Assembly: GCA_022968985.1 (NCBI GenBank)
Contig: JALJPK010000045.1
Location: forward strand, 19,127-31,400
Direction of reading: 5' to 3'
Length of the DNA stretch: 12,274 nt
DNA from: Pseudomonadales bacterium
Lineage (GTDB): Bacteria; Pseudomonadota; Gammaproteobacteria; Pseudomonadales; Natronospirillaceae
Shown here: positions 2,739-12,274 of the stretch, piece after piece
Numbering within the stretch: position 1 is the stretch's first letter
Layout of the letters: each line of letters begins with the position of its first letter
Notes under the pieces: generated by a model
The model's input: only the letters and a program-made list of their open reading frames with translations
Database searches by the model: none
Told to the model about the DNA's origin: nothing
Made by a program: the position numbers and the translations under genes

Positions 2739-3095
2739 TTATTTCTTATCGATTAAGTCAACTTTAACCTTCGTTTTAGTCACCATCGATTTTTCAAGAC
2801 TCGATATTTGTTTACCCAAGTTCTTAACCCTCTGCCAAATATCATGATCCATATCAAGTTTGTGTCGCATTGCACTTACAACAGGTAATAGACTTGTTGT
2901 AATCGCATCACTCATAGAATGTAATACTTTATCCATTCCAGGTACGGGTTGATTCACCACTTCAACATGCATCTTCGCTTCACTTATTAACTTAGACATT
3001 TGTTGAATGGCTTGTGTGACAGGCACTAAGGCATCGGGTTTTTCTATATTAATAGATTCATTAATATTAAATAAACCGTCATTTATTTTAGCCAC
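2739..3095 (-). CDS. Hypothetical 118-aa protein, last gene of the minus-strand operon; candidate partner of the giant ATPase
   Basis: Non-repetitive ORF that starts 12 bp after the stop of the 1632-aa gene (GTG start at 3095, weak SD). No transmembrane segment and no recognisable motif. Its operonic position is the only functional clue. Confidence 0.5.
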   Translation of the reverse strand: MAKINDGLFNINESINIEKPDALVPVTQAIQQMSKLISEAKMHVEVVNQPVPGMDKVLHSMSDAITTSLLPVVSAMRHKLDMDHDIWQRVKNLGKQISSLEKSMVTKTKVKVDLIDKK

Positions 3096-3107
3096 TTGGT
3101 TTGCAAG

Positions 3108-6100
3108 TTAAGTGGTTGAGTCTGCATCGTCGCCACCCATAGATTGTATACGTGCGTAATCTTGTTTGATTTGGCTCCAACGGATTTTTTCATCATCATT
3201 TAAACTGTTGTTTAACTCACCTAATTTTAATAAGTTTTCTTCTGCGCCGGTGGTTAATGTTTGTGCTTCACCTACGTAATGATCACGTATCAAATCGTTT
3301 AGCTCTTTATCGTTCATTATACCGCTGATTTTTTCAGCCATTTTACTCATATTACGATAACTACCTTGTAACTTAAATGAAGGTTCAATTCGGTATTTAT
3401 CATCTTGAGCCGCTGAAATAATATATTGTTGATTTACTTTTAAAACAACTTCCTGCACTTTATAAAGTTTCTTTAATACATCAACAATTTCTTTTACTTC
3501 GGCACCACTATAATTGTGTTCTAAATCCGTTGATGCAATATTTTCACCTTCAGCCATACGCATTAATTTATATACGTCTTGTATATTACGTGTTGCTAAA
3601 GGGGCTAATACCGCATTCGAGGTTAAGCAGTTTTCGATATAACTCATGGAGAATTGTTTTTCGCGTCCGCTTAATACATCACCTAAATTATAAATGTCAG
3701 CTCGGTTCGCTAACATGTCTGGAATTTTAAATGACTCACCTGATTCTGTATAAGGGTTACCTGCCATAATCACACAGAATTTTTTACCGCGTAAATCATA
3801 GGTTTTACTTTTGCCTTTCCAAACTCCGTCAATACGTCTAGAGCCATCACAAAGTGAAATAAATTTTTGTAAAAACTCAGGGTGGGTATGTTGAATGTCA
3901 TCTAAGTAGAGCATGACATTGTTGCCCATCTCAAAACCTAAATTGATTTTTTCTAACTCTTGGCGGGCCGTTGCGTTAGGTGCTTGTTCTGGATCCAGTG
4001 ACATCACATCATGACCCAAAGACGGGCAGTTGATTTTCATAAAAATCAAACCCATTCGGCTGGCTACGTATTCCATTAATGTGGTTTTACCGTAACCTGG
4101 TGGTGATATTAATAATAATAAACCCATTAAATCGGTTCGTTTATTAGCGCCTACGGTACCCATTTGTTTGGCTAAATTGTCACCAATAATAGGTAGATAC
4201 ACATCGTTAATTAATTTGTTACGCACAAACGAACTCAATGGTTTCGCTTTAAAATCTTCTAAACGTAATGATTTTCGTTCTTGTTGCACTATGTCGTGGC
4301 GAAGCTCTAAAAACGCTTTGTATTGTGGTACAACACTTTGTACATGATGATTTAAACGCTGGGTAAATTCATCTAAAGCTAAAGTCATAGTTTGTTGTTT
4401 GATTAATTTATGATCCCCCATTAATCCTTCAATATTTTGTTGAAGATCAATGGCTTTAGATTGCATTTTTAAATCTTGTTGGCACAAAATAATAGCAATG
4501 GCTTCGGGTATAAATCGAACGGCATCTGATTGCTGGGTTGATTCTATAAACGCATGTAACCAGGTTTGTAATAAAGCCCATTGTTTATCTAACGCGCCAT
4601 CAAGTTGGGTCAGTGTCTTTTTATAGGAATCTAAATGCGAAATACTACTTAAGTGCGATTCTAAATCGGTTACTAAAGTTTGTGCATTTAAGCTACAGGA
4701 AAACACTAACTCGTCTTGAGCTAATTCGTAAGATAAATAATCAGCGCTTAACTTTAAGTCCTGTTCGTTTAAATCTAAATTAAACTCAGAAAAGTACTCA
4801 GTGATGTCGTGTAATAACTCTTCGCGTATTTTGCTATAAGCTTGATTACTATTAAATGTTTGGGCCAAAATTTCAGCACTTTGTGCACGTACTGGCCACA
4901 AATTATCAGTGACTTTTTTGACGTTAAAGTTCCAATACATTAATGCCAATGCACGTGGTTTAGGTGGGTAACGTAATAAACCACATTCTTTGCGAATACT
5001 TAATAAAGCCAATAATAATTTGGCCGCATCATAATCATGAATGCCTTTTTCGTAACCTTCTTGATAACGTGTGGCGCTAAAGGTTTTAATTATTTTTAAT
5101 AGCTCTTCTTCTGAGCAGTCATATAATTGATTAAAACTCAAACCATCTTGAGTTGCTTCGGCAGCATTTAAAATAGAAAATACTAAATATTCAGCACGAT
5201 ATACTTCGTCTGTTTCAGATATAAACGATTGATCCCAATAGGATTGTAATTTAATTAATTCTTGATTATCAACTGTGTCGAAATAATCCGTGCCAGTTAA
5301 ATGTAACGCAATTTCATTATTCTTTGGAATAATGGTTAAATCAACATTTTGAGTGTTCACACTAAAACGGTGACGACCCAATTTAATGATGTTACCGCCA
5401 TCTTCAAAGATGTCTTGTTTATCGCGTTGGGCGCGTACGGCTTGATCACGGGCAAACTTAAGTCGACTATCAATATCGTCTGCACGCACACTGTCACCCA
5501 GTTTACGCAGTTGATCACATAGTCCACGACACTTAGATACCATTGCGTCAGACGCAAAATAGGTATTAATTTCGTCTGCTGTATTAAAGCTTGAGCTTTT
5601 GCGTGTCACTCCTACTAAAATACGATCAGCGGCATTGGATAAGTTATGTACTTTACGTTGTTGCTCGTCTAACAACGATTGTTTAAGCGCTTCAAAGGTT
5701 TCATAAACCTGTTCACGTTTAGTTAAAATATCACCTAAAAACTCATCGTATTCACTAAAGCGGGATTCTAATTCTTCAAGTTGGGCTAATAAACGGGTTA
5801 ATTGTTCATCACAACTTTGTGGTGTAAGCGCTAATGTTTGTGCGTTAGCAATCGATTGTGAAAATAAAGTAAACTGTGCAGAAAATTCTGCAATGGTTTC
5901 AGAAGAACCTAACGATTTTAAATGTTGTTTTGATATGGCTTTGGCTTGGTTTAACTTACCGTATACTTCTGAAATGGATTCTAAAATTGCAGTTCGTATA
6001 GTGGCGTCATCTACTTTTAAACTGCCAAGCATTTTAGTTAATAAATCTAAGCCTTTAGTCATGTCGTTTAAATCATCAAGCACAGGTTGTAAAGTAACCA

Positions 6101-8006
6101 CTGTTTCTATTTGATCTAAATTATCTGTAATCTCAATAATACGATTGCTATATTGATCTAACGCATGGGGCTGGTTTAAAAAACGAATGGTTTTTTTAGA
6201 TAAATCGGTTTGTTCTTTTTCTAAGCTCTCATCAAATTGTTTTATTCGTTCTAAGTCGATATAACGTAATTCTTTGATTGTAATTAAATGCCCTCTAAAC
6301 GAAGAGAATTTATCAAGCGCGGTAACAAAGTCAGAAGGTTGTTCCCATTTGAATTTTTTAATGTCTGAAAAAAGTCTTTTGATTTGTGTGTCCGCTTTAG
6401 TAATCGCTTCGTTGGCTTGATTACGAATACTTTCAACTTTTTCAAATTCGTCTAATACTAATTCAGAAGTTTGTTGAATGTCTTTTACTTGTATACTTAA
6501 TGCAGGTAATCCGTCATCTTCAATCCAATGATAGGTGTCAAAAACCGCTTCACATTGTTCGATTAAATTTTCATACATTAATGCACTGACGTTTTCATCA
6601 TGAGTCATTTTAACAATAGAATTAATGTGCGAAATAGCACGCACTAATTCAGGGTTGCCAATACGCCCTAATAATGAATTGTTATCAGGCTGGCTCTGTA
6701 AAAACTCATCACTGAAAAATGGTGTTTGCCAAATTTGCATAGGATGCAAACGAGAAGGCTCATCGGATTCTGCTGAAAACAAAATTCCTTGTCCGTTATC
6801 AAACAAACAAAATCCATGACCAAATAATGGGGTGGATAACTCTTTACGAATTAAGTTGTAATTAAATAAGCCAAACTTGCCTTCGTCTGCTTTATAAAAT
6901 TTATATAAAATATCTTCACCGTTAGGTGATTTTTTAGCTGACTCAAAAATCATTCCATCGGCGTTTGATCCAAATGATTTAGTTTCGCCACTTTGCAAAT
7001 AATAACCACCAGGAAATATAATACCGTGGTCTTCAGGTAGCTGAATACAACTGTGGGCAAGGGCATCAATTCGATTCACTTGATTATTAAGTGTATTAAA
7101 TACTAAATAACGCCAATTGGTTTCGCGGTAAGGTAATATTTTTAATAATATTAATGATCCTAATTTTGCATAAAATATCCCCGCATCCGCTAACGACTGA
7201 TTTTTATCGTCCACATCTTCACGGTAAATACCTAAACCGTCTTGCGTATTATTTTCAACTTTAATTGTTAAATCACCATTAACGGTTTCAACAAATACCT
7301 CATCTAAAATACTGATGTGAGGATTTTTACCTGTCACGTGATTTTTACGTGTGGTGCCTATCCATTCAAAATCGTGCGTAGGGATTACATCCAGTTCACG
7401 CTCACCTCGGTCATCTATATAACTGATACTTTCATCGTTATTGATTGCCCAACGAAATACTCGAATGTCGTTTAAAGATTTTCCAATCTGAAAAAAGGCT
7501 AGTACTCGTTTGTTGTTATTTTCTAATTTAATTAATTTAGCATTTTTGTAATAACTATAAAGCTCCTTAAAATCCTTTACGAACTCGTTATCATCTAAAA
7601 AACTGTCTTTTATTGCAGTGGGTTCAATGGCAAACCCCTCTTCGTTTTTCAGTTTGTATAAACCAAATACATCAGCAACACTGATTTCGTTTTTTAAACC
7701 AATAAAAACGTTATAACCAAATAATAGTTTGTCTTTTACTTGAACGATGTCTCTGGCTTCACAGTTATTTTCGGTGCGCACTCGGACGCGACCAATCACT
7801 TCCATTGAGGTTTCACCAAATTCTTCTAAACGTAAAACGTTTAAAGAGTTAGAAGTTTGCTCTAATAAATTCGCTTGTTGTTGTAGGCGTTTTTTGATTA
7901 ATTCGTAAGCACTGCCTTGGGTAACGGCGTCTTCGATATTTGAATTATTGTCTTTTTTTACTGCGACCACGGAAAAATCCCTCAAGAATTTGAATTGACA
8001 TGACAT
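3108..8006 (-). CDS. Giant (1632 aa) multidomain protein with a C-terminal MoxR/AAA_5-type AAA+ ATPase. It may belong to the poorly characterised family annotated 'ATPase involved in DNA repair' (DUF3686 + AAA); this is recalled from memory and unverified.
   Basis: A single uninterrupted 4.9-kb ORF. The N-terminal ~480 aa is beta-rich with many aromatic/Gly motifs. The central ~800 aa is helical/coiled-coil-like. The C-terminal module has Walker A LLLLISPPGYGKTTLMEYVA, Walker B NNVMLYLDDIQH, sensor-1 FCVIMAGNPY and an Arg finger MLANRADIY. This pattern is typical of the AAA_5/MoxR/McrB/dynein clade. The start ATG at 8004-8006 has a weak SD and lies 6 nt after a 13-bp hairpin. Confidence 0.85.
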   Translation of the reverse strand: MSCQFKFLRDFSVVAVKKDNNSNIEDAVTQGSAYELIKKRLQQQANLLEQTSNSLNVLRLEEFGETSMEVIGRVRVRTENNCEARDIVQVKDKLLFGYNVFIGLKNEISVADVFGLYKLKNEEGFAIEPTAIKDSFLDDNEFVKDFKELYSYYKNAKLIKLENNNKRVLAFFQIGKSLNDIRVFRWAINNDESISYIDDRGERELDVIPTHDFEWIGTTRKNHVTGKNPHISILDEVFVETVNGDLTIKVENNTQDGLGIYREDVDDKNQSLADAGIFYAKLGSLILLKILPYRETNWRYLVFNTLNNQVNRIDALAHSCIQLPEDHGIIFPGGYYLQSGETKSFGSNADGMIFESAKKSPNGEDILYKFYKADEGKFGLFNYNLIRKELSTPLFGHGFCLFDNGQGILFSAESDEPSRLHPMQIWQTPFFSDEFLQSQPDNNSLLGRIGNPELVRAISHINSIVKMTHDENVSALMYENLIEQCEAVFDTYHWIEDDGLPALSIQVKDIQQTSELVLDEFEKVESIRNQANEAITKADTQIKRLFSDIKKFKWEQPSDFVTALDKFSSFRGHLITIKELRYIDLERIKQFDESLEKEQTDLSKKTIRFLNQPHALDQYSNRIIEITDNLDQIETVVTLQPVLDDLNDMTKGLDLLTKMLGSLKVDDATIRTAILESISEVYGKLNQAKAISKQHLKSLGSSETIAEFSAQFTLFSQSIANAQTLALTPQSCDEQLTRLLAQLEELESRFSEYDEFLGDILTKREQVYETFEALKQSLLDEQQRKVHNLSNAADRILVGVTRKSSSFNTADEINTYFASDAMVSKCRGLCDQLRKLGDSVRADDIDSRLKFARDQAVRAQRDKQDIFEDGGNIIKLGRHRFSVNTQNVDLTIIPKNNEIALHLTGTDYFDTVDNQELIKLQSYWDQSFISETDEVYRAEYLVFSILNAAEATQDGLSFNQLYDCSEEELLKIIKTFSATRYQEGYEKGIHDYDAAKLLLALLSIRKECGLLRYPPKPRALALMYWNFNVKKVTDNLWPVRAQSAEILAQTFNSNQAYSKIREELLHDITEYFSEFNLDLNEQDLKLSADYLSYELAQDELVFSCSLNAQTLVTDLESHLSSISHLDSYKKTLTQLDGALDKQWALLQTWLHAFIESTQQSDAVRFIPEAIAIILCQQDLKMQSKAIDLQQNIEGLMGDHKLIKQQTMTLALDEFTQRLNHHVQSVVPQYKAFLELRHDIVQQERKSLRLEDFKAKPLSSFVRNKLINDVYLPIIGDNLAKQMGTVGANKRTDLMGLLLLISPPGYGKTTLMEYVASRMGLIFMKINCPSLGHDVMSLDPEQAPNATARQELEKINLGFEMGNNVMLYLDDIQHTHPEFLQKFISLCDGSRRIDGVWKGKSKTYDLRGKKFCVIMAGNPYTESGESFKIPDMLANRADIYNLGDVLSGREKQFSMSYIENCLTSNAVLAPLATRNIQDVYKLMRMAEGENIASTDLEHNYSGAEVKEIVDVLKKLYKVQEVVLKVNQQYIISAAQDDKYRIEPSFKLQGSYRNMSKMAEKISGIMNDKELNDLIRDHYVGEAQTLTTGAEENLLKLGELNNSLNDDEKIRWSQIKQDYARIQSMGGDDADSTT
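3650..4140 (-). other. AAA+ ATPase module (MoxR/AAA_5-like) within the giant protein, approx. aa 1290-1450
   Basis: The Walker A codons lie at ~4082-4126 (rc encodes MGLLLLISPPGYGKT). Walker B, sensor 1 and the Arg finger follow within ~130 codons. About 180 aa of C-terminal helical extension lies beyond. Confidence 0.7.
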
Positions 8007-8012
8007 CTTTAA

Positions 8013-8050
8013 AAAGCACTTTAAGATTCCTTTGAGCCTTAAAGTGCTTT
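8013..8050 (-). promoter_or_regulatory. Perfect 13-bp inverted repeat (12-nt loop) in the flotillin-to-giant-ATPase spacer; intra-operon attenuator/terminator or translation-occluding hairpin
   Basis: aaagcactttaag (8013-8025) and cttaaagtgcttt (8038-8050) are exact reverse complements. On the minus-strand transcript the 3' arm ends GCUUUUUAAAG immediately before the AUG at 8006. The loop contains AAAGGAAU. No comparable structure occurs in the other intergenic gaps of the operon. Confidence 0.45.
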
Positions 8051-8068
8051 GTAACTAAACGACTGTTT

Positions 8069-8115
8069 TAATCGTCAGATTCTAATCGTTACAAACTATT
8101 CTAATCGTCAGATTC
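8069..8115. repeat. Direct repeat duplicating the last codons and stop of the flotillin gene (taatcgtcagattc ×2, with a partial third copy taatcgt)
   Basis: Copies at 8069-8082 and 8102-8115, plus a partial copy at 8083-8089. On the minus strand each copy reads GAATCTGACGATTA(A/G), i.e. E-S-D-D-stop. The real C-terminus is …IESDD-TAG and the upstream copy encodes ESDD-TAA. Confidence 0.6.
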
Positions 8116-10164
8116 GATTGATGTCATCAATTGCTTAACTAGATTTTTTTGTTCGTTAGTGCCACTTTTAACTACATGTCCTAAAAATGCACTCACTGTT
8201 AGGTTTTGCAAGTTACCGCTACCAGCACTTAAACCAGCTACGATATCTTTTAAATCACCCACAAAACTTTCGTCACCATTCATGTGGCCTTCAATTGCTT
8301 TTGTTACTATCTTGCTCTTATTCGCTACACCATCAATTGATTTACCAACGGCTAATGCGTTAACAAATTTCTCGAAGTAATCGCCGTTACCACCAACTAT
8401 ATCAATGTTCGCATCACGTAATGCAGTGGATAAAACTTCTGCTTGGTCATGTGCAATTTCAACATTAGACATAATACGTTGCATTGTTTGTTCATGCGTG
8501 AAATCAAGATCCATACGGAATTCTTCATGGCTACGTGTGTCTTCATCCATTTGTTTCATGGCTAAAAATTTCTTCTCTAAACCTTCTGCTTCTGCTGAGT
8601 ACTTATCAGCAATGTTTCTAGCTTCTGCTTCACCGTATAATTTAAGTGCTGACGCATCTGCTTCTTTAACTGTGGCCGCTGCAATACCAATTTTTTCATC
8701 ACCGGCTGCTTGAGCGGTTAATTTCTCAACTAATACTTTAGCGTTAGCTAAACCTGATTTTTCATCGGCATCGGCTTTGGCTTCTTGTACTTTAACATCT
8801 GCTAAGCCTGGGGCTGCATGAATCGCTTCAATACCTTTGGCTTCATTTCTTTTAGCTTCGGCGTCTTTTTCAGCTGATTTTAAACGGCCTTCAGCTAATA
8901 ATAATGCTTCTTTAGCCTTATGCGTGGCTTTAATTTCGTCTGCTTCTGCCGCTTTGATTTCTTTTACTAATGACTGTTGAGCATGTGCTTCAGCAGTCAC
9001 AATCATGGCGTCTTTTTCACGTTCTGCTTTTGAAACTAAACGCACTTTTTCGATCGCTTCTTCTTCAACAGCTACGGTTCTTTCAACACTCACACGTTCA
9101 CGAACTATATCAGCAATATTTTTACGTTCAATTTCTACTGCTTTTTCTTTTTCAATGGTTTCTAGTTCAACAGCACGATGACGTTGTACTTCTTCTAACT
9201 CTTGTGCGCGTTTCACTTGTTCTGTTTCAGTTACAACAACACGTTGACGATTTAAGTTGGCTACTTCTACTTCACGATGTTTGTTTTCTTCAGCAATTAG
9301 AATTTTTTCTTCTGCTGCAATTCGCGCATTTTCATATTTTAACTTCTCTTCTTGTTGTATTTTTTTTGTTTCAGCTTCTTCGCGAGCGATAACAGTTAAT
9401 ACTTCGCGCTGTTGTTTAGCTTGTGCGTCTTTTTCTTGGCGTTCTAACTCTAATATAGTTTCACGAGTTTCTACGTCTTTCTTTTTAATCTTCATTTCTT
9501 CTTCGCGTCGATGCTCATTGGTTTCAATGTGTTCAATCGCAGTTAGACGAATGATTTTACGAATACCCTGTGCATCCAATATATTGTCACGATCCAAACT
9601 TTCAATAGGTGTTTGTTCTAAATAATCAATTGCTGCATCTTCTAATACATAACCATTTAAATCTTCGCCAATAACACGAATAATGTCATCACGAAACTTG
9701 TCACGCTCTTGATATAAATCAGTAAAGTCTAAACGTTTACCCACTGTTTTTAATGCTTCAGAAAACTTAGCACTGAATAAATTTTCCATTGTTTCTTGTT
9801 CAGAGGCACGCTCGCACCCAATTGCTTGAGCCACACGAAGTACGTCTTCTTTTGTTTTATTAACCCGAACAAAAAATGCCACTTTAATATCGGCTCGAAT
9901 GTTATCCATACAGATCAAACCGTCTTTGCCACGACGATCAATCTCGATCGTTTTTAATGAAATGTTCATAATTTCTTTGCGATGAATAACCGGTAATACT
10001 AGGCGACCGGTAAATGTTACTTCGGGTTCTTCGCGGGTGGTGTTAACGATCATGGCATTACCTTGATCGACTTTTTTGTAAAAACTTGCGTATAAAATGC
10101 AAATGCCGATAACAATTACGACTAAGACTAGAGCTATTGGTAAAATTATTGAAAAAAGATCCAT
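8101..10164 (-). CDS. yqiK: Flotillin-family protein (SPFH/band-7 domain + long Glu/Ala-rich coiled coil), YqiK-like
   Basis: N-terminal TM helix (IILPIALVLVVIVIGICILYA). SPFH core with the conserved …ADIKVAFFVRV… block as in E. coli YqiK. A ~300-aa EA-rich coiled-coil region (EEKLKYENARIAAEEKILIAEENKHREVEVANL…). Total 687 aa. AGGAA SD 8 nt upstream of the ATG at 10164. Confidence 0.85.
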   Translation of the reverse strand: MDLFSIILPIALVLVVIVIGICILYASFYKKVDQGNAMIVNTTREEPEVTFTGRLVLPVIHRKEIMNISLKTIEIDRRGKDGLICMDNIRADIKVAFFVRVNKTKEDVLRVAQAIGCERASEQETMENLFSAKFSEALKTVGKRLDFTDLYQERDKFRDDIIRVIGEDLNGYVLEDAAIDYLEQTPIESLDRDNILDAQGIRKIIRLTAIEHIETNEHRREEEMKIKKKDVETRETILELERQEKDAQAKQQREVLTVIAREEAETKKIQQEEKLKYENARIAAEEKILIAEENKHREVEVANLNRQRVVVTETEQVKRAQELEEVQRHRAVELETIEKEKAVEIERKNIADIVRERVSVERTVAVEEEAIEKVRLVSKAEREKDAMIVTAEAHAQQSLVKEIKAAEADEIKATHKAKEALLLAEGRLKSAEKDAEAKRNEAKGIEAIHAAPGLADVKVQEAKADADEKSGLANAKVLVEKLTAQAAGDEKIGIAAATVKEADASALKLYGEAEARNIADKYSAEAEGLEKKFLAMKQMDEDTRSHEEFRMDLDFTHEQTMQRIMSNVEIAHDQAEVLSTALRDANIDIVGGNGDYFEKFVNALAVGKSIDGVANKSKIVTKAIEGHMNGDESFVGDLKDIVAGLSAGSGNLQNLTVSAFLGHVVKSGTNEQKNLVKQLMTSIESDD

Positions 10165-10200
10165 TATTAATTTCCTGATTGATTAAAGGTTAAATGTTAA

Positions 10201-10848
10201 TTATTTATTAAGGTTAGTTTTAAATTCATCATTACTGATTACTTGATAAAGGTTATTTGTTTTGTTGTAACTAATCGCTATCACAATGTCACCTTTTTTA
10301 AAGCCTTCTGCTTTAGATGCACGAATTCTTACAATTATATCATCGCCGTTATTTGAGCTAATTCGACCCTGTCCAAATTCATCATCAACCGTTAGGGAGG
10401 TGACTTTACAAGGTTGACCCAAAAAATCGATTTTTGTTTTTGCTTTATTTTCGTTTGATAATTTTCTTAGTGGTTGAATTAATTTTCCTGTAATAAATAC
10501 AGCAATTATAAAACTTCCAACTAAAGTAGTTGAGCTAAAAATAAACTGTAATATTGAGCTTGGAATAAGAGGTGTTAAGAAAATTGATGTAAGGTAGGTA
10601 ATTGTCCATGCTAAAAATATTATCAGTGTTAATACAATTGTGAATGGTACACCAGAGAGTCCTAGAGTATGTAATAATCCAGCAAATCCAGGGATATCAG
10701 TTTCTGTATCAAAATCAACATCAAATGAAACAACATCAATATCCATAGCACCTATAATAGTGAATAACCATAAAACCAATAACATTGCTAAAAATATAGT
10801 GTAAATCCCAGTTGGATAACTACTTAATACATTCCAAATTTCATTCAT
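10201..10848 (-). CDS. yqiJ: YqiJ/NfeD-like inner-membrane protein (flotillin-associated partner)
   Basis: 215 aa with 3-4 predicted TM helices and a C-terminal soluble NfeD-like beta domain (…GQGRISSNNGDDIIVRIRASKAEGFKKGDIVIAI…). It sits directly upstream of the flotillin gene with a 36-bp gap, mirroring the E. coli yqiJ-yqiK pair. AAGGTGG SD upstream. Confidence 0.75.
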   Translation of the reverse strand: MNEIWNVLSSYPTGIYTIFLAMLLVLWLFTIIGAMDIDVVSFDVDFDTETDIPGFAGLLHTLGLSGVPFTIVLTLIIFLAWTITYLTSIFLTPLIPSSILQFIFSSTTLVGSFIIAVFITGKLIQPLRKLSNENKAKTKIDFLGQPCKVTSLTVDDEFGQGRISSNNGDDIIVRIRASKAEGFKKGDIVIAISYNKTNNLYQVISNDEFKTNLNK

Positions 10849-10857
10849 TCATTCATT
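10842..10857. repeat. (CATT)4 / (AATG)4 tetranucleotide repeat spanning the yqiJ-like start codon
   Basis: tcattcattcattcatt on the plus strand equals AATGAATGAATGAATG on the coding strand. It puts four ATGs in three frames between the SD (AAGGTGG) and the ORF. Only the ATG at 10848 opens the long frame. Confidence 0.6.
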
Positions 10858-10864
10858 CCCCACC

Positions 10865-11185
10865 TTATTGTTTATTTTTTTGAGTGGCCAATACTAATTC
10901 TTCTTTAATACGATTGCGAATTTCTATTGTGTTATTGGGGTCCAATTCATAACGCTTGCCAAGCATTAAATAATCAGCCGGTGACAAACTAATACTTAAT
11001 CTTGGGCGCACTGGTTTTTTACGAGGTAATTGGATGATCTCTCGTATTAAATCCGAAGGGCTTAAATCATTTTCTATCGCAGTAATACGTAAAATTTTTG
11101 ATTGTGCCTGCTCTAATTCAAATACCACTTGTACCGCTTTGATATTCTTATCAGAGACACTCCACGATTTTGCTATTTTTTTCAA
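10865..11185 (-). CDS. Hypothetical 106-aa protein with a possible ribbon-helix-helix-like C-terminal half
   Basis: ORF that exactly fills the gap between PspA-like and yqiJ-like genes. Its stop overlaps the yqiJ SD. Likely TTG start at 11185, with an AGGT ~9 nt upstream. The segment RPRLSISLSPADYLMLGKRYELDPNNTIEIRNRIKEEL resembles a strand-helix-helix (RHH) pattern. No TM segments. The gene call is uncertain because of the non-ATG start. Confidence 0.45.
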   Translation of the reverse strand: MKKIAKSWSVSDKNIKAVQVVFELEQAQSKILRITAIENDLSPSDLIREIIQLPRKKPVRPRLSISLSPADYLMLGKRYELDPNNTIEIRNRIKEELVLATQKNKQ

Positions 11186-11207
11186 AACTTTTTTACCTGT
11201 TGTTATT

Positions 11208-11909
11208 TTATGACTGCTTAGTTTTAGATGATTTCTTTAGGCGATCTAACACTGAGTGAGCAGAATTTTTATCTTTGATAATGCCAGCTTCTTCCAAGCG
11301 GGTTTGTAGACTTTCGTCTTTTGACGATTCTGCTAATTCGATATTGGCTGCTGCTTGATCTTCTTTTCTTTGCTGACGTTCACGAATACGTGCTAATGAA
11401 TCTGTGGCGCTACTTAATGACGAGTTCGAACCATTGGCATTTTTATTGGCTAAATCATTGGCTTTTTGAACTTTATCAGTGGTTTCAACCAATCTTAATT
11501 CACGTTCACAGGATTGAATATTACTATCAGCTTGTGATATCGCTTTTTTTAACGTAATTACTTGAGACTCAAAACTATTTAAAACGGCTTGATTAGCATC
11601 CCTTTGTTGCTCTAAATTTGCAATTTTTTCAGATACTTCTAAGGCTAAAGTCTCATCGTCTTTATCTAGTGCTTTTATTACATAAGACTCATGCTCTGTA
11701 ATGGAATCAGTAGCTGTCTTTAATGTACGTTCAATGGCTATTTTTTGCGCCACTATGTTTGTTAGACTCACTTTAGATTGCTCTAATGCTAGTTTCGCAT
11801 CACGAATTTCTTGTTCTAAAATACGAAAAGCTTGAGTGTCTACAATGGCTTCGCCTACTTCAGTAACACCGCCACGTACAGCTGTAATTAATTTTTTAAA
11901 AATACTCAT
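11208..11909 (-). CDS. yjfJ: PspA/IM30 (ESCRT-III superfamily) protein, YjfJ-like
   Basis: The N-terminus MSIFKKLITAVRGGVTEVGEAIVDTQAFRILEQEIRDAKLALEQSK matches the PspA/IM30 amphipathic helix plus the conserved RxLEQxIRDAK block of E. coli YjfJ. The remainder is coiled-coil, with a C-terminal …LEEAGI…SAHSVLDRLK… region like YjfJ. The ATG at 11907-11909 has a GGAG SD 8 nt upstream. The ORF-track start is a TTG extension. Confidence 0.85.
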   Translation of the reverse strand: MSIFKKLITAVRGGVTEVGEAIVDTQAFRILEQEIRDAKLALEQSKVSLTNIVAQKIAIERTLKTATDSITEHESYVIKALDKDDETLALEVSEKIANLEQQRDANQAVLNSFESQVITLKKAISQADSNIQSCERELRLVETTDKVQKANDLANKNANGSNSSLSSATDSLARIRERQQRKEDQAAANIELAESSKDESLQTRLEEAGIIKDKNSAHSVLDRLKKSSKTKQS

Positions 11910-11922
11910 ATTATTCTCCAAA

Positions 11923-12274
11923 TTAAGTTAGGTATTCTGACACAGCGTCAATTGCTTCTAATACGTTGTCGCTGAGTGTCTCAATTTCTTTGATTAAATC
12001 ATCAGTACTTGATTGGGGGGATAATGCACCAAACATAATATATTGATTACTAATTTTTGAAAATGCCGATAATGGAATCGATACATTTAATATCAACATC
12101 GCTTCAGTTAAGTTCGATTTTTGTGCTGACTTAACTTGATCGTCTGCAAATAAATACGTAATAACTAATATTTGGCCTTCATCAACCGTCAGGTAAATAG
12201 GGAACTCTTCTCTATCGGGTACTGTAATACAAGCTACTGATCCATCACCTGCAAGTTTATCAATATTCAGCTTA
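11923..12274 (-). CDS. yjfI: YjfI-like (DUF2170) protein; C-terminal part only, start lies beyond window end
   Basis: The minus-strand frame is open to the window edge. It encodes …ITVPDREEFPIYLTVDEGQILVITYLFADDQVKSAQKSNLTEAMLILNVSIPLSAFSKISNQYIMFGALS…EIETLSDNVLEAIDAVSEYLT*. This matches the conserved PDREEFP…FGALS…IETLSDNVLEA blocks of E. coli YjfI. The stop lies 13 nt before the PspA-like start. Confidence 0.75.
   Translation of the reverse strand, partial: KLNIDKLAGDGSVACITVPDREEFPIYLTVDEGQILVITYLFADDQVKSAQKSNLTEAMLILNVSIPLSAFSKISNQYIMFGALSPQSSTDDLIKEIETLSDNVLEAIDAVSEYLT

Follow-up and report, generated by a model that had tools for sequence, protein, structure and literature searches.

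A probable membrane-maintenance operon linking PspA, NfeD-like, flotillin-like and giant ATPase genes, with a candidate ribbon-helix-helix autoregulator

The DNA analysed here, referred to as the window, is a stretch of 12,274 nucleotides from a contig (JALJPK010000045.1) of a bacterium of the Pseudomonadales. It carries five minus-strand genes, the first of them cut by the contig end, followed by the gene for a giant DUF3686-AAA+ ATPase. The features are, in gene order:

11923–12274, minus strand: 3′ part (116 codons and stop) of a DUF2170/YjfI/BacA-family gene for a CesT/Tir-like chaperone (Pfam PF09938, E = 7.8e-30)
11208–11909, minus strand: YjfJ-type PspA/IM30 protein (ESCRT-III superfamily), 233 aa, with ATG at 11909 after a GGAGA Shine-Dalgarno sequence (Pfam PF04012, E = 3.7e-39)
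10865–11185, minus strand: single-chain tandem ribbon-helix-helix (RHH) protein, 106 aa, TTG start
10201–10848, minus strand: YqiJ/YuaF (NfeD)-type inner-membrane protein, 215 aa, three hydrophobic helices and a C-terminal OB-fold domain
8101–10164, minus strand: flotillin-like SPFH protein, 687 aa, with a membrane helix at the N-terminus, an SPFH domain, a long coiled coil rich in Glu/Ala and a conserved C-terminal domain
8009–8054, minus strand: hairpin just 5′ of the ATPase start codon, 17-nt arms, 94% complementary, U-run at its end (inverted-repeat search and RNA fold)
3108–8006, minus strand: giant ATPase, 1632 codons, with N-terminal DUF3686, DUF7902, coiled coils and one AAA+ module (about residues 1297–1422), ending at an in-frame TAA (3108–3110)
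2739–3107, minus strand: severed C-terminal tail of the ATPase, in frame with it, made up of a 118-aa ORF and the four codons that separate its GTG from the TAA

The first-pass annotation had described five co-directional genes between 8101 and 12274, with spacers of 13 to 36 bp and overlapping Shine-Dalgarno and stop sequences, and all of this was confirmed: the spacers measured 13, 22, 16, and 36 nt in gene order, and the Shine-Dalgarno sequences adjoined or overlapped the stop codon of the preceding gene. The flotillin-ATPase spacer was 94 nt. It had also stated, correctly, that the window contains no DUF2491, DUF350, or DUF1190 genes and that the giant ATPase and the flotillin pair take the place of yjfKLMC; these polyamine-linked genes of E. 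coli had no counterparts in the window, where the cluster was flanked by genes for an AAA_33 kinase, an esterase, and a fragment of an ABC ATPase. Two ORFs that it had left as small and unknown proved to be something else, that at 10865–11185 encoding a conserved single-chain tandem RHH protein and that at 2739–3095 being the severed C-terminus of the ATPase.

Direct pairwise alignments with the named E. coli proteins identified four window products as homologues of YjfI, YjfJ, YqiJ, and YqiK, at identities of only 25–43%. The DUF2170 gene, which ends with the contig in the window and is complete, at 138 codons, in another assembly of the source organism (locus L085, 1482–1898), encodes a protein homologous to YjfI (E = 4e-9), bearing out the relationship first proposed for the partial ORF. 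The full-length copy matched the solved structure 8q8o, which we take to be that of BacA, over its whole length (E = 3.3e-8), and the window protein also matched the NCBIfam BacA model, yet at 62.7 bits against an equivalog cut-off of 300. The second protein aligned over its full length with YjfJ (33% identity, E = 1e-26) and gave no significant pairwise match to E. coli PspA, in keeping with its first assignment as YjfJ-type rather than canonical; solved Vipp1/PspA structures matched it at E of about 1e-4. PspA is a member of the ESCRT-III superfamily, and the tails of the PspA proteins, including that of the window, held a MIM1-like V[ML]xR[IL] core (hydrophobic-x-x-R-hydrophobic).

The 687-aa protein aligned with YqiK by BLASTP at 26% identity over 435 aa (E = 4e-34) and, through its residues 19–426, by hhalign with a probability of 99.8%; its homologues are annotated as YqiK or flotillin family, some with a precomputed PF01145 match. 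Neither this protein nor the YqiJ-like one reached the Pfam models YqiJ_N, YqiJ_OB, NfeD, Band_7, or Flot, and the conserved C-terminal domain of the flotillin likewise had no match to Flot, whereas E. coli YqiJ and YqiK matched all their models (YqiJ_N, YqiJ_OB, Band_7, and Flot). Judged by these comparisons, the window proteins are distant relatives of the E. coli pair, which belongs to a different, Pfam-detectable subfamily.

The ATPase matched DUF3686 (E = 6e-192), DUF7902 (E = 3e-25), and AAA (E = 6e-7), and the solved structures nearest to its AAA+ module were ClpE, Rix7, and VCP-type ATPases. Every complete relative had an ORF that ran 66–279 codons further, reading ...DSATKLANQVAKIND... 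where the window has ...DSTT*LANQVAKIND..., a change of AAA (Lys) to TAA. Wherever homology to the tail was detected in a relative, it fell within the ATPase ORF, and the second assembly of the source organism carried the identical in-frame stop. With this premature stop, therefore, the ATPase is split or impaired in the source organism. RNA folding of 7995–8110, around the preceding hairpin, gave −29.3 kcal/mol (z = −3.4), with none of 200 shuffled sequences as stable; the hairpin, which separates the flotillin gene from that for the ATPase, is possibly an attenuator or an mRNA-stabilising element. Because the 94-nt spacer holds a promoter-like site as well as the hairpin, the ATPase gene may be expressed differently, and in the source organism its co-transcription with the upstream genes is no more than putative.

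An HMM search of fetched loci recovered the full order YjfI-PspA-106aa-YqiJ-flotillin-ATPase in 46 loci of Gamma- and Betaproteobacteria (44 independent genome loci plus those of the closest isolate and of the second assembly of the source organism) and a short form, YqiJ-flotillin-ATPase, in another 25 loci spread over several phyla. The linkage is not a chance one, because the six-gene order recurs in 46 loci; that the order is the same across two proteobacterial classes supports a function shared by the YjfI/YjfJ-type and YqiJ/YqiK-type modules, whose linkage the annotation had proposed to check by synteny. As a unit, the core of YqiJ, flotillin, and ATPase is more widespread than the full operon. 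Within the family the flotillin-ATPase spacer was the longest and most variable (median 277 nt, maximum 863 nt), and in Betaproteobacteria it contained an additional Zn-ribbon gene. As had been said, yqiJK (3.19 Mb) and yjfIJKLM (4.41 Mb) are separate loci in E. coli K-12. The two modules are thus joined here, but the data show no direction for the "fusing" that the annotation described, since the core is more widespread and E. coli yqiJK is of another subfamily.

This composite arrangement has been published before: Ravi et al. (2024, mSystems; PMC11237479) described a class of operons with CesT/Tir-PspA, YqiJ/YuaF, band-7/flotillin, and beta-propeller-AAA+ components, proposed a role for it, gave Dokdonia donghaensis ANH61663.1 as an example, and also noted abbreviated YqiJ-flotillin(-ATPase) operons. 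The window operon shares with it all five protein types and their order, and the abbreviated operons correspond to the 25 short loci recovered here. We consider it likely that most of a single conserved membrane-maintenance operon of this published class, composed of chaperone, PspA, RHH, NfeD-like, flotillin-like, and ATPase genes, lies in the window. The bacABCDEF operon of P. aeruginosa (PA3732–PA3727; PMC2587700, PMC10948618) appears to belong to the class too, homology having been tested for BacA only. As in the window, it opens with a DUF2170 gene, next to which is a PspA-like gene; a 23-kDa membrane protein, a 76-kDa protein, and two more genes follow, and from the reported sizes only we infer that BacC, BacD, and BacE correspond to YqiJ, flotillin, and ATPase. 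The bacA-F genes are co-transcribed at all junctions, as assayed by RT-PCR, and BacA exerts negative control on the others, its loss raising BacB-F 6- to 13-fold (PMC10948618). E. coli, in contrast, lacks the giant ATPase and the RHH protein, and the PspA-SPFH links of Bacillus subtilis (ydjFGHI/L; YuaF-FloT) involve other partners (TPM, Zn-ribbon) and other regulation, without DUF2170, the giant ATPase, or RHH.

The RHH gene was present whenever the YjfI-PspA pair was present, and it lay between pspA and yqiJ in all 46 proteobacterial long-form loci. Its product belongs to a dedicated family that is small, with 189 cluster representatives in a set of 1.84 billion proteins, and its strand residues are invariant (A-V-Q-V-x-F; R-P-R-L-x-x-S-L). 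It showed no significant sequence similarity to F-plasmid TraY, AvtR, or engineered single-chain Arc, whose context is plasmid or virus, whereas its own is a membrane-stress operon. Upstream of yjfI, the palindrome GACAT-N3-ATGTC occurred exactly in 46 of 46 RHH-containing loci with upstream DNA retained, as 73 copies, usually one or two per locus, all within a few hundred bp of the gene. An independent metagenome scan found 14 dual-motif sites directly upstream of yjfI-pspA operons. One copy of the palindrome holds the sigma-70 −35 box as TTGACATnnnATGTC; a perfect TTGACA was embedded in a motif copy in 44 of the 46 loci, with a −10-like hexamer at 16–18 nt in 34. In the source organism the predicted promoter lies beyond the window, with O1 (L085 1430–1442) spanning the −35 box and O2 (1447–1459) the −10 box, about 20 nt upstream of the Shine-Dalgarno sequence. 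None of the 46 loci had a sigma-54-like site, whereas a sigma-54 site was proposed for bac, which was reported with six genes and no RHH gene; regulation may therefore differ between lineages. The palindrome was absent upstream of E. coli yjfI, and the description and Table S3 example of Ravi et al. are without RHH gene or operator, both of which the 46 proteobacterial long-form loci have. We found no published description of the RHH regulator or its conserved operator.

Going by co-occurrence, GACAT-N3-ATGTC is probably the operator of the 106-aa protein, itself a probable autoregulator of the operon: the motif was found in none of 32 loci without a detectable RHH gene (583 kb), no other product of the operon has a DNA-binding-type fold, and the strand residues of the 106-aa protein are as invariant as the operator arms. 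Such pairing is not binding, however, and a regulator encoded elsewhere might read the palindrome, with the 106-aa protein having another role, such as that of a PspA-binding adaptor. AT-centred dual motifs also stood upstream of SPFH, NhaA, and YidC-like genes on contigs without a nearby RHH gene, GACAT...ATGTC pairs with CGG/CCG centres occurred on many unrelated contigs, and an adaptor would suit both the MIM1-like core of the PspA tails and the C-terminal half of the 106-aa protein, whose sequence weakly resembles the Vps4 MIT domain. That resemblance is not significant (E = 0.16), and against the 46 to 0 distribution of the motif we regard this reading as fairly unlikely.

The reading of the cluster as one operon can likewise be set against others. 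That it comprises two or three merely adjacent units, yjfI-pspA(-RHH), yqiJ-flotillin, and ATPase, with no common function, would fit the separate E. coli loci, the 25 loci without YjfI-PspA-RHH, and the hairpin and promoter-like hexamer pair before the ATPase gene; it is nevertheless improbable, given the identical order and adjacency in 46 loci, the short spacers within 8101–12274, an operator motif confined to the region upstream of yjfI and absent inside the window, promoter-like sites in the window fewer than expected by chance (28 versus 39.5), and RT-PCR across all bac junctions (PMC10948618). A more tenable, though still doubtful, proposal keeps the operon and makes the ATPase a separately tuned sub-unit through an attenuating hairpin, with structural proteins therefore in excess over ATPase. 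The stability of the hairpin and the length, variability, and Zn-ribbon insertion of the spacer favour it; the stem, however, is A/U-rich and was not called by a terminator scan, and mutation of bacA in P. aeruginosa raises BacE protein along with BacB-D (PMC10948618). That the cluster serves anti-phage defence or is mobile-element cargo, and is no housekeeping membrane system, was suggested by the Pfam label of the giant ATPase, "ATPase involved in DNA repair", and by the frequency of RHH proteins in toxin-antitoxin and plasmid systems. We regard this as very improbable, because PADLOC gave no meaningful match (one weak coiled-coil, E = 3e-4; one P-loop, E = 0.0016), GC content was even along the window, the cluster was chromosomal with conserved order in many isolates, and its partners are membrane proteins.

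As one membrane-maintenance operon, the cluster could work as follows. In the inner membrane the NfeD-like protein would anchor and organise the flotillin oligomer, and at this platform PspA would polymerise on damaged or curved membrane, held or regulated by the DUF2170 chaperone; the RHH protein would bind the palindromes and repress its own operon. By analogy with Vps4 acting on ESCRT-III, the AAA+ ATPase might remodel or disassemble the polymers. The likeness to that system lies in a PspA of the ESCRT-III superfamily, with its MIM1-reminiscent tail, encoded beside an AAA+ ATPase. Unlike Vps4, the window ATPase, in which no MIT domain was detected, combines DUF3686, DUF7902, and one AAA+ module in over 1700 aa.

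The genes from 2739 to 12274 formed a single row, all co-directional on the minus strand, as established by ORF listing and translation. These genes and those flanking them were as follows:

11923-12274, minus strand: partial ORF with a DUF2170 domain, cut by the window end (ORF listing, translation)
11208-11909, minus strand: 233-aa PspA_IM30 protein, with an ATG start behind GGAGA
10865-11185, minus strand: 106-aa ORF, predicted tandem ribbon-helix-helix (RHH) protein, with a TTG start
10201-10848, minus strand: 215-aa ORF, YqiJ-like (ORF listing, translation)
8101-10164, minus strand: 687-aa ORF, flotillin-like (ORF listing, translation)
3108-8006, minus strand: 1632-aa ORF, giant ATPase (ORF listing, translation)
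2739-3095, minus strand: 118-aa ORF, in frame with the ATPase ORF
2191-2667, convergent: AAA_33/KTI12-like kinase, unrelated to the operon and marking its 3' boundary
1036-2043: secreted esterase, a flanking gene unrelated to the operon
270-848: ORF with an ABC-ATPase domain, a flanking gene unrelated to the operon and probably a piece of a longer ABC-F gene

The spacers between 8101 and 12274 measured 13, 22, 16, and 36 nt, and the Shine-Dalgarno sequences adjoined or overlapped the stops of the preceding genes, in agreement with the 13-36 bp spacers and the overlapping layout described in the first-pass annotation. That annotation was also correct that genes for DUF2491, DUF350, and DUF1190 are missing from the window and that yqiJK and yjfIJKLM are distinct loci in E. 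coli K-12. The GC content of the window was uniform (0.32-0.39), and no Rfam family was matched anywhere in it. The contig breaks off within the first gene, whose absent 5' end, together with the promoter, was provided by a second assembly (L085) of this organism.

The partial ORF matched DUF2170 in Pfam (E=7.8e-30) and had as homologues E. coli YjfI and 8q8o, a DUF2170 protein of solved structure; as a DUF2170/CesT-Tir-like gene it lay directly 5' of the yjfJ-family pspA gene, with a 13-nt spacer. The 233-aa product of the latter matched PF04012 (PspA_IM30) at E=3.7e-39, scoring 135.1 bits against a gathering cut-off of 33.9, and aligned with E. coli YjfJ end to end at 33% identity (E=1e-26); pairwise comparison with E. 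coli PspA gave no significant alignment, placing the protein nearer to YjfJ than to PspA within the PspA/IM30 family. The alternative allowed for earlier, a canonical PspA preceded by an ORF unrelated to YjfI, thus fails on both counts, the PspA being of the YjfJ type and its upstream neighbor a DUF2170 gene. The pspF, pspB, and pspC genes of the classical Psp regulon were not found in the window. Assignment of the PspA protein to the ESCRT-III superfamily was supported by a match to Vipp1. The tails of the PspA proteins (loci L004-L085; window 11211-11260) had in common V[ML]xR[IL]xx[RK] after a flexible linker of the AGIG type, and its conserved V[ML]xR[IL] core is similar to that (LxxRL) of the MIM1 motifs of ESCRT-III; the Xanthomonadales tails depart from this pattern.

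Neither the YqiJ-like nor the flotillin-like protein matched any NCBIfam family. The flotillin-like protein had no Pfam match even at E<=10, whereas E. coli YqiK matches Band_7 and Flot; likewise, the YqiJ-like protein did not match YqiJ_N, YqiJ_OB, or NfeD, whereas E. coli YqiJ matches YqiJ_N and YqiJ_OB. Because these databases were blank for both proteins, homology was shown through pairwise, profile, and fold comparison. The 687-aa protein was 26% identical to YqiK over 435 aa (E=4e-34), hhalign gave a probability of 99.8% over residues 19-426, and the TM helix, SPFH domain, and coiled coil were all recovered by alignment to YqiK; the C-terminal Flot domain (PF15975) was detected neither by Pfam nor by hhalign. 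Given clear YqiK homology without a Pfam match, we concluded from sequence comparison that the protein belongs to a divergent but very widespread YqiK-related subfamily; its relatives in the database number >8000, are typically 680-700 aa long, and are in many cases labelled YqiK or flotillin. The YqiJ-like protein had the three hydrophobic helices and NfeD-type OB domain of YqiJ/YuaF-type 3TM proteins, with weak sequence support, and showed the membrane anchor and C-terminal OB-fold, beside an SPFH gene, that characterize NfeD/YqiJ (DUF1449) proteins. Of 29 relatives, 1 matched NfeD in Pfam (E=0.027). In the closest isolate, a Marinicellulosiphila, an extra gene for a 203-aa Band_7 protein lies between the YqiJ-like and flotillin genes (L004 9272-9883).

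A scan of a genome collection with the flotillin alignment yielded 80 loci, to which we added the locus of the closest isolate and the source region in three copies; gene order was scored by tblastn and then by HMM searches with the proteins of the window. The full order DUF2170-PspA-106aa-YqiJ-flotillin-ATPase (the long form) was present in 46 loci, from Gammaproteobacteria (Thiodiazotropha, Marinicella, Tahibacter and other Xanthomonadales relatives, Moraxellaceae, and Marinicellulosiphila) and from Betaproteobacteria (Variovorax, Acidovorax, Hydrogenophaga, Massilia, Duganella, and Ideonella). A further 25 loci, from Myxococcota, Acidobacteriota, Paraglaciecola, Rhodoferax, and others, had YqiJ-flotillin-ATPase only (the short form); loci belonging to neither group were cut by contig ends. 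Median spacers across the family ranged from 25 to 109 nt, with the exception of 277 nt 5' of the ATPase gene. Betaproteobacterial loci (L010 12151-12699, L023 12146-12679) have an extra gene between the flotillin and ATPase genes, encoding a protein of ~180 aa with two CxxC...GxWxDxGE zinc-ribbon-like motifs, and this gene accounts for the gaps of 600-860 nt found at that position in ~30 loci. In a Thiotrichaceae MAG a 3.7-kb insertion separates the RHH and YqiJ-like genes (L005 5613-9300).

Homologues of the 106-aa protein, 35-93% identical, were encoded at this position in all long-form loci and were absent from those short-form loci having upstream DNA; the 106-aa ORF is a real gene. An AlphaFold2 model (pLDDT 80) showed strand-helix-helix two times over, with the strands predicted to pair into a two-stranded sheet, as in the beta-alpha-alpha fold of the RHH superfamily. 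Some relatives matched the NikA-like RHH family of Pfam, and one source labels the Thalassotalea homologues as CopG-family RHH proteins; a weak MIT-like match (E=0.16) was not significant. The family is small, numbering 189 cluster representatives in a set of 1.84 billion proteins. The tandem-RHH module is found, too, at the C terminus of proteins of 330-620 aa (P0377, P0382, P0393, P0401, P0411, P0412, and others), behind a conserved N-terminal domain and a long Pro/Ala/Lys-rich linker; Pfam identified no domain in them apart from one faint hint of DUF4178 (E=0.062).

Upstream of yjfI in L085, the sequence reads TTGACATAATATGTC-gccg-GACATAATATGTC, followed by the Shine-Dalgarno sequence and ATG. 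A sigma-70-like promoter, TTGACA-17-TAATAT (L085 1428-1459), lies under two copies of a palindrome (GACATAATATGTC) that are 4 nt apart, and the pair is ~20 nt 5' of the Shine-Dalgarno sequence of the yjfI-like gene. All 46 of the RHH-containing loci with upstream DNA carried the exact palindrome, GACAT-N3-ATGTC, in a total of 73 copies, each just upstream of yjfI; there was none in the 32 loci lacking a detectable RHH gene (583 kb) and none in the window, and it was not found at E. coli yjfI. By our own calculation, chance would supply ~1 copy per 925 kb searched. One copy held a perfect -35 hexamer in 44 of the 46 loci, a -10-like hexamer followed 16-18 nt further on in 34, and the second copy often covered the -10/+1 region. 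This layout is that of a putative repressor operator and, by co-occurrence, the operon-encoded RHH protein is the obvious candidate to bind it. Short spacers, a gene order kept across loci, and one operator/promoter at the 5' end would be consistent with a single transcription unit. Control of the sigma-54/PspF type was rejected since the regions upstream of yjfI in the 46 loci contained no sigma-54-like site and a sigma-70 -35/-10 pair was present instead. A literature search on the operator sequences returned unrelated primers only.

When metagenomes were scanned for two palindrome copies <=20 nt apart, 120 loci were returned, 14 with the site directly 5' of yjfI-pspA operons. About 90 of the 120 (L088-L207) were of another class with CGG/CCG centers (GGACATCSGATGTCC) that was not tied to the operon. 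As this class made up most of the matches, the bare dual-palindrome pattern is not specific unless the center is A/T-rich. Pairs of this class, GGACATC[C/G]GATGTCC, were common on metagenome contigs of varied GC, often inverted and sometimes several per contig. Operon-like A/T-rich centers were found in 11 of the 120 sites (among them L088 2101-2132, L174 2692-2723, L186 13312-13344, L108 8922-8962, L199, and L204), and the genes following such pairs included those for two SPFH/Band_7 proteins, NhaA, a YidC-like insertase, and small membrane proteins. The occurrence of these pairs at other membrane genes hints at a wider regulon.

The giant protein contained DUF3686 (E=6e-192), DUF7902, and one AAA+ module in Pfam, and on these domains it belongs with AAA+ ATPases having an N-terminal beta-propeller and coiled coil, the propeller fold being predicted. 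Within the literature library searched, no paper mentioned 'DUF3686'. An in-frame TAA at 3108-3110 parts the 118-aa ORF from the ATPase ORF, which in all complete relatives runs 66-279 codons beyond this point and contains the region homologous to the tail. At this place the closest relative has ...DSATKLANQVAKIND... and the window ...DSTT*LANQVAKIND..., a single change from AAA (Lys) to TAA. The same TAA is present in the second assembly of the organism, where the NCBI annotation has no ATPase gene. The in-frame stop, the homology of the tail to the interior of the relatives' ATPase ORF, and the AAA to TAA change thus argue that the 118-aa ORF is the result of a recent nonsense mutation or gene split and no independent small gene. 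The small unknown ORF listed at 2739-3095 in the first-pass annotation is the C-terminal tail of the ATPase rather than an unknown gene of its own. The TAA cuts the ATPase ~122 codons early, the severed tail being 2739-3107, and the split gene is a natural setting in which to ask whether the tail can function in trans. The tail could be translated on its own from a GTG 12 nt downstream of the TAA. Directly 5' of the ATPase start codon is a stable hairpin (8009-8054; 17-nt arms, z=-3.4 relative to shuffles) followed by a U-run, which may lower expression of the ATPase relative to the structural proteins.

The proposal that the yjfIJ-like and yqiJK-like modules are joined in a composite operon was supported in substance, both the modules and their linkage being confirmed; the arrangement itself had been published. 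Ravi et al. 2024 (PMC11237479) describe exactly this gene combination, with abbreviated operons more widely distributed, and in the bac operon of P. aeruginosa BacA (DUF2170) and BacB (PspA-like) are followed by a 23-kDa membrane protein and a 76-kDa protein (PMC2587700). The six bac genes are co-transcribed, as demonstrated by RT-PCR across every junction, and loss of BacA raises BacB-F 6- to 13-fold (PMC10948618). BacC, BacD, and BacE would correspond to the YqiJ-like protein, the flotillin-like protein, and the ATPase, an assignment resting on reported sizes. The composite operon is thus already known, and the window adds one member to it. An RHH gene in this operon class is not listed in the text or supplementary table of Ravi et al. 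(PMC11237479).

The observed parts list, conserved gene order, and promoter/operator architecture can be fitted to a model that draws on the cited papers and on what is known of the protein families. In this model, the NfeD-like protein and flotillin would make an inner-membrane scaffold, at which a polymer of the YjfJ-type PspA would assemble on stressed membrane; the DUF2170 chaperone would hold or regulate PspA, the AAA+ ATPase would remodel the polymers as Vps4 does with ESCRT-III, and the RHH protein would keep the operon off until stress lifted repression. We propose tentatively, with confidence falling a little short of an even chance, that the proteobacterial version of the operon represents an undescribed, sigma-54-independent 'Psp-like' stress circuit, in which a dedicated regulator, the single-chain tandem RHH protein, would act on GACAT-N3-ATGTC where this overlaps the -35 and -10/+1 positions of a sigma-70 promoter, perhaps being released by a PspA/DUF2170 partner switch comparable to PspA-PspF, and would also govern a small membrane-homeostasis regulon (another SPFH protein, NhaA, a YidC-like insertase, and small membrane proteins). 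The linkage of PspA, flotillin, and ATPase is among the clearest genomic hints for bacterial ESCRT-III-like polymers working on SPFH platforms with an ATP-driven remodeler; this idea is already in the literature, to which the present instance adds an extra member and no new concept. The points worth carrying forward are the RHH gene, the candidate operator with its possible regulon, and the split ATPase. A conserved operator with a cognate-looking small repressor is a simple entry point to the regulation of the system, and could reveal when it switches on, which other genes are co-regulated, and whether there is transcriptional feedback from PspA or the DUF2170 chaperone. A reading of the locus as anti-phage defence was rejected, PADLOC giving no meaningful match.

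Short repeats were seen at two places within the gene row. An (AATG)4 tetranucleotide run (10842-10857) crosses the start of the YqiJ-like gene and supplies four ATGs in rotating frames, only that at 10848 being in frame. At 8062-8116, the final ~20 nt of the flotillin gene with its stop (GAATCTGACGATTAG) recur 33 nt further downstream (GAATCTGACGATTAA); a third copy, which is partial, lies between the two, and the repeat looks like a small duplication scar.
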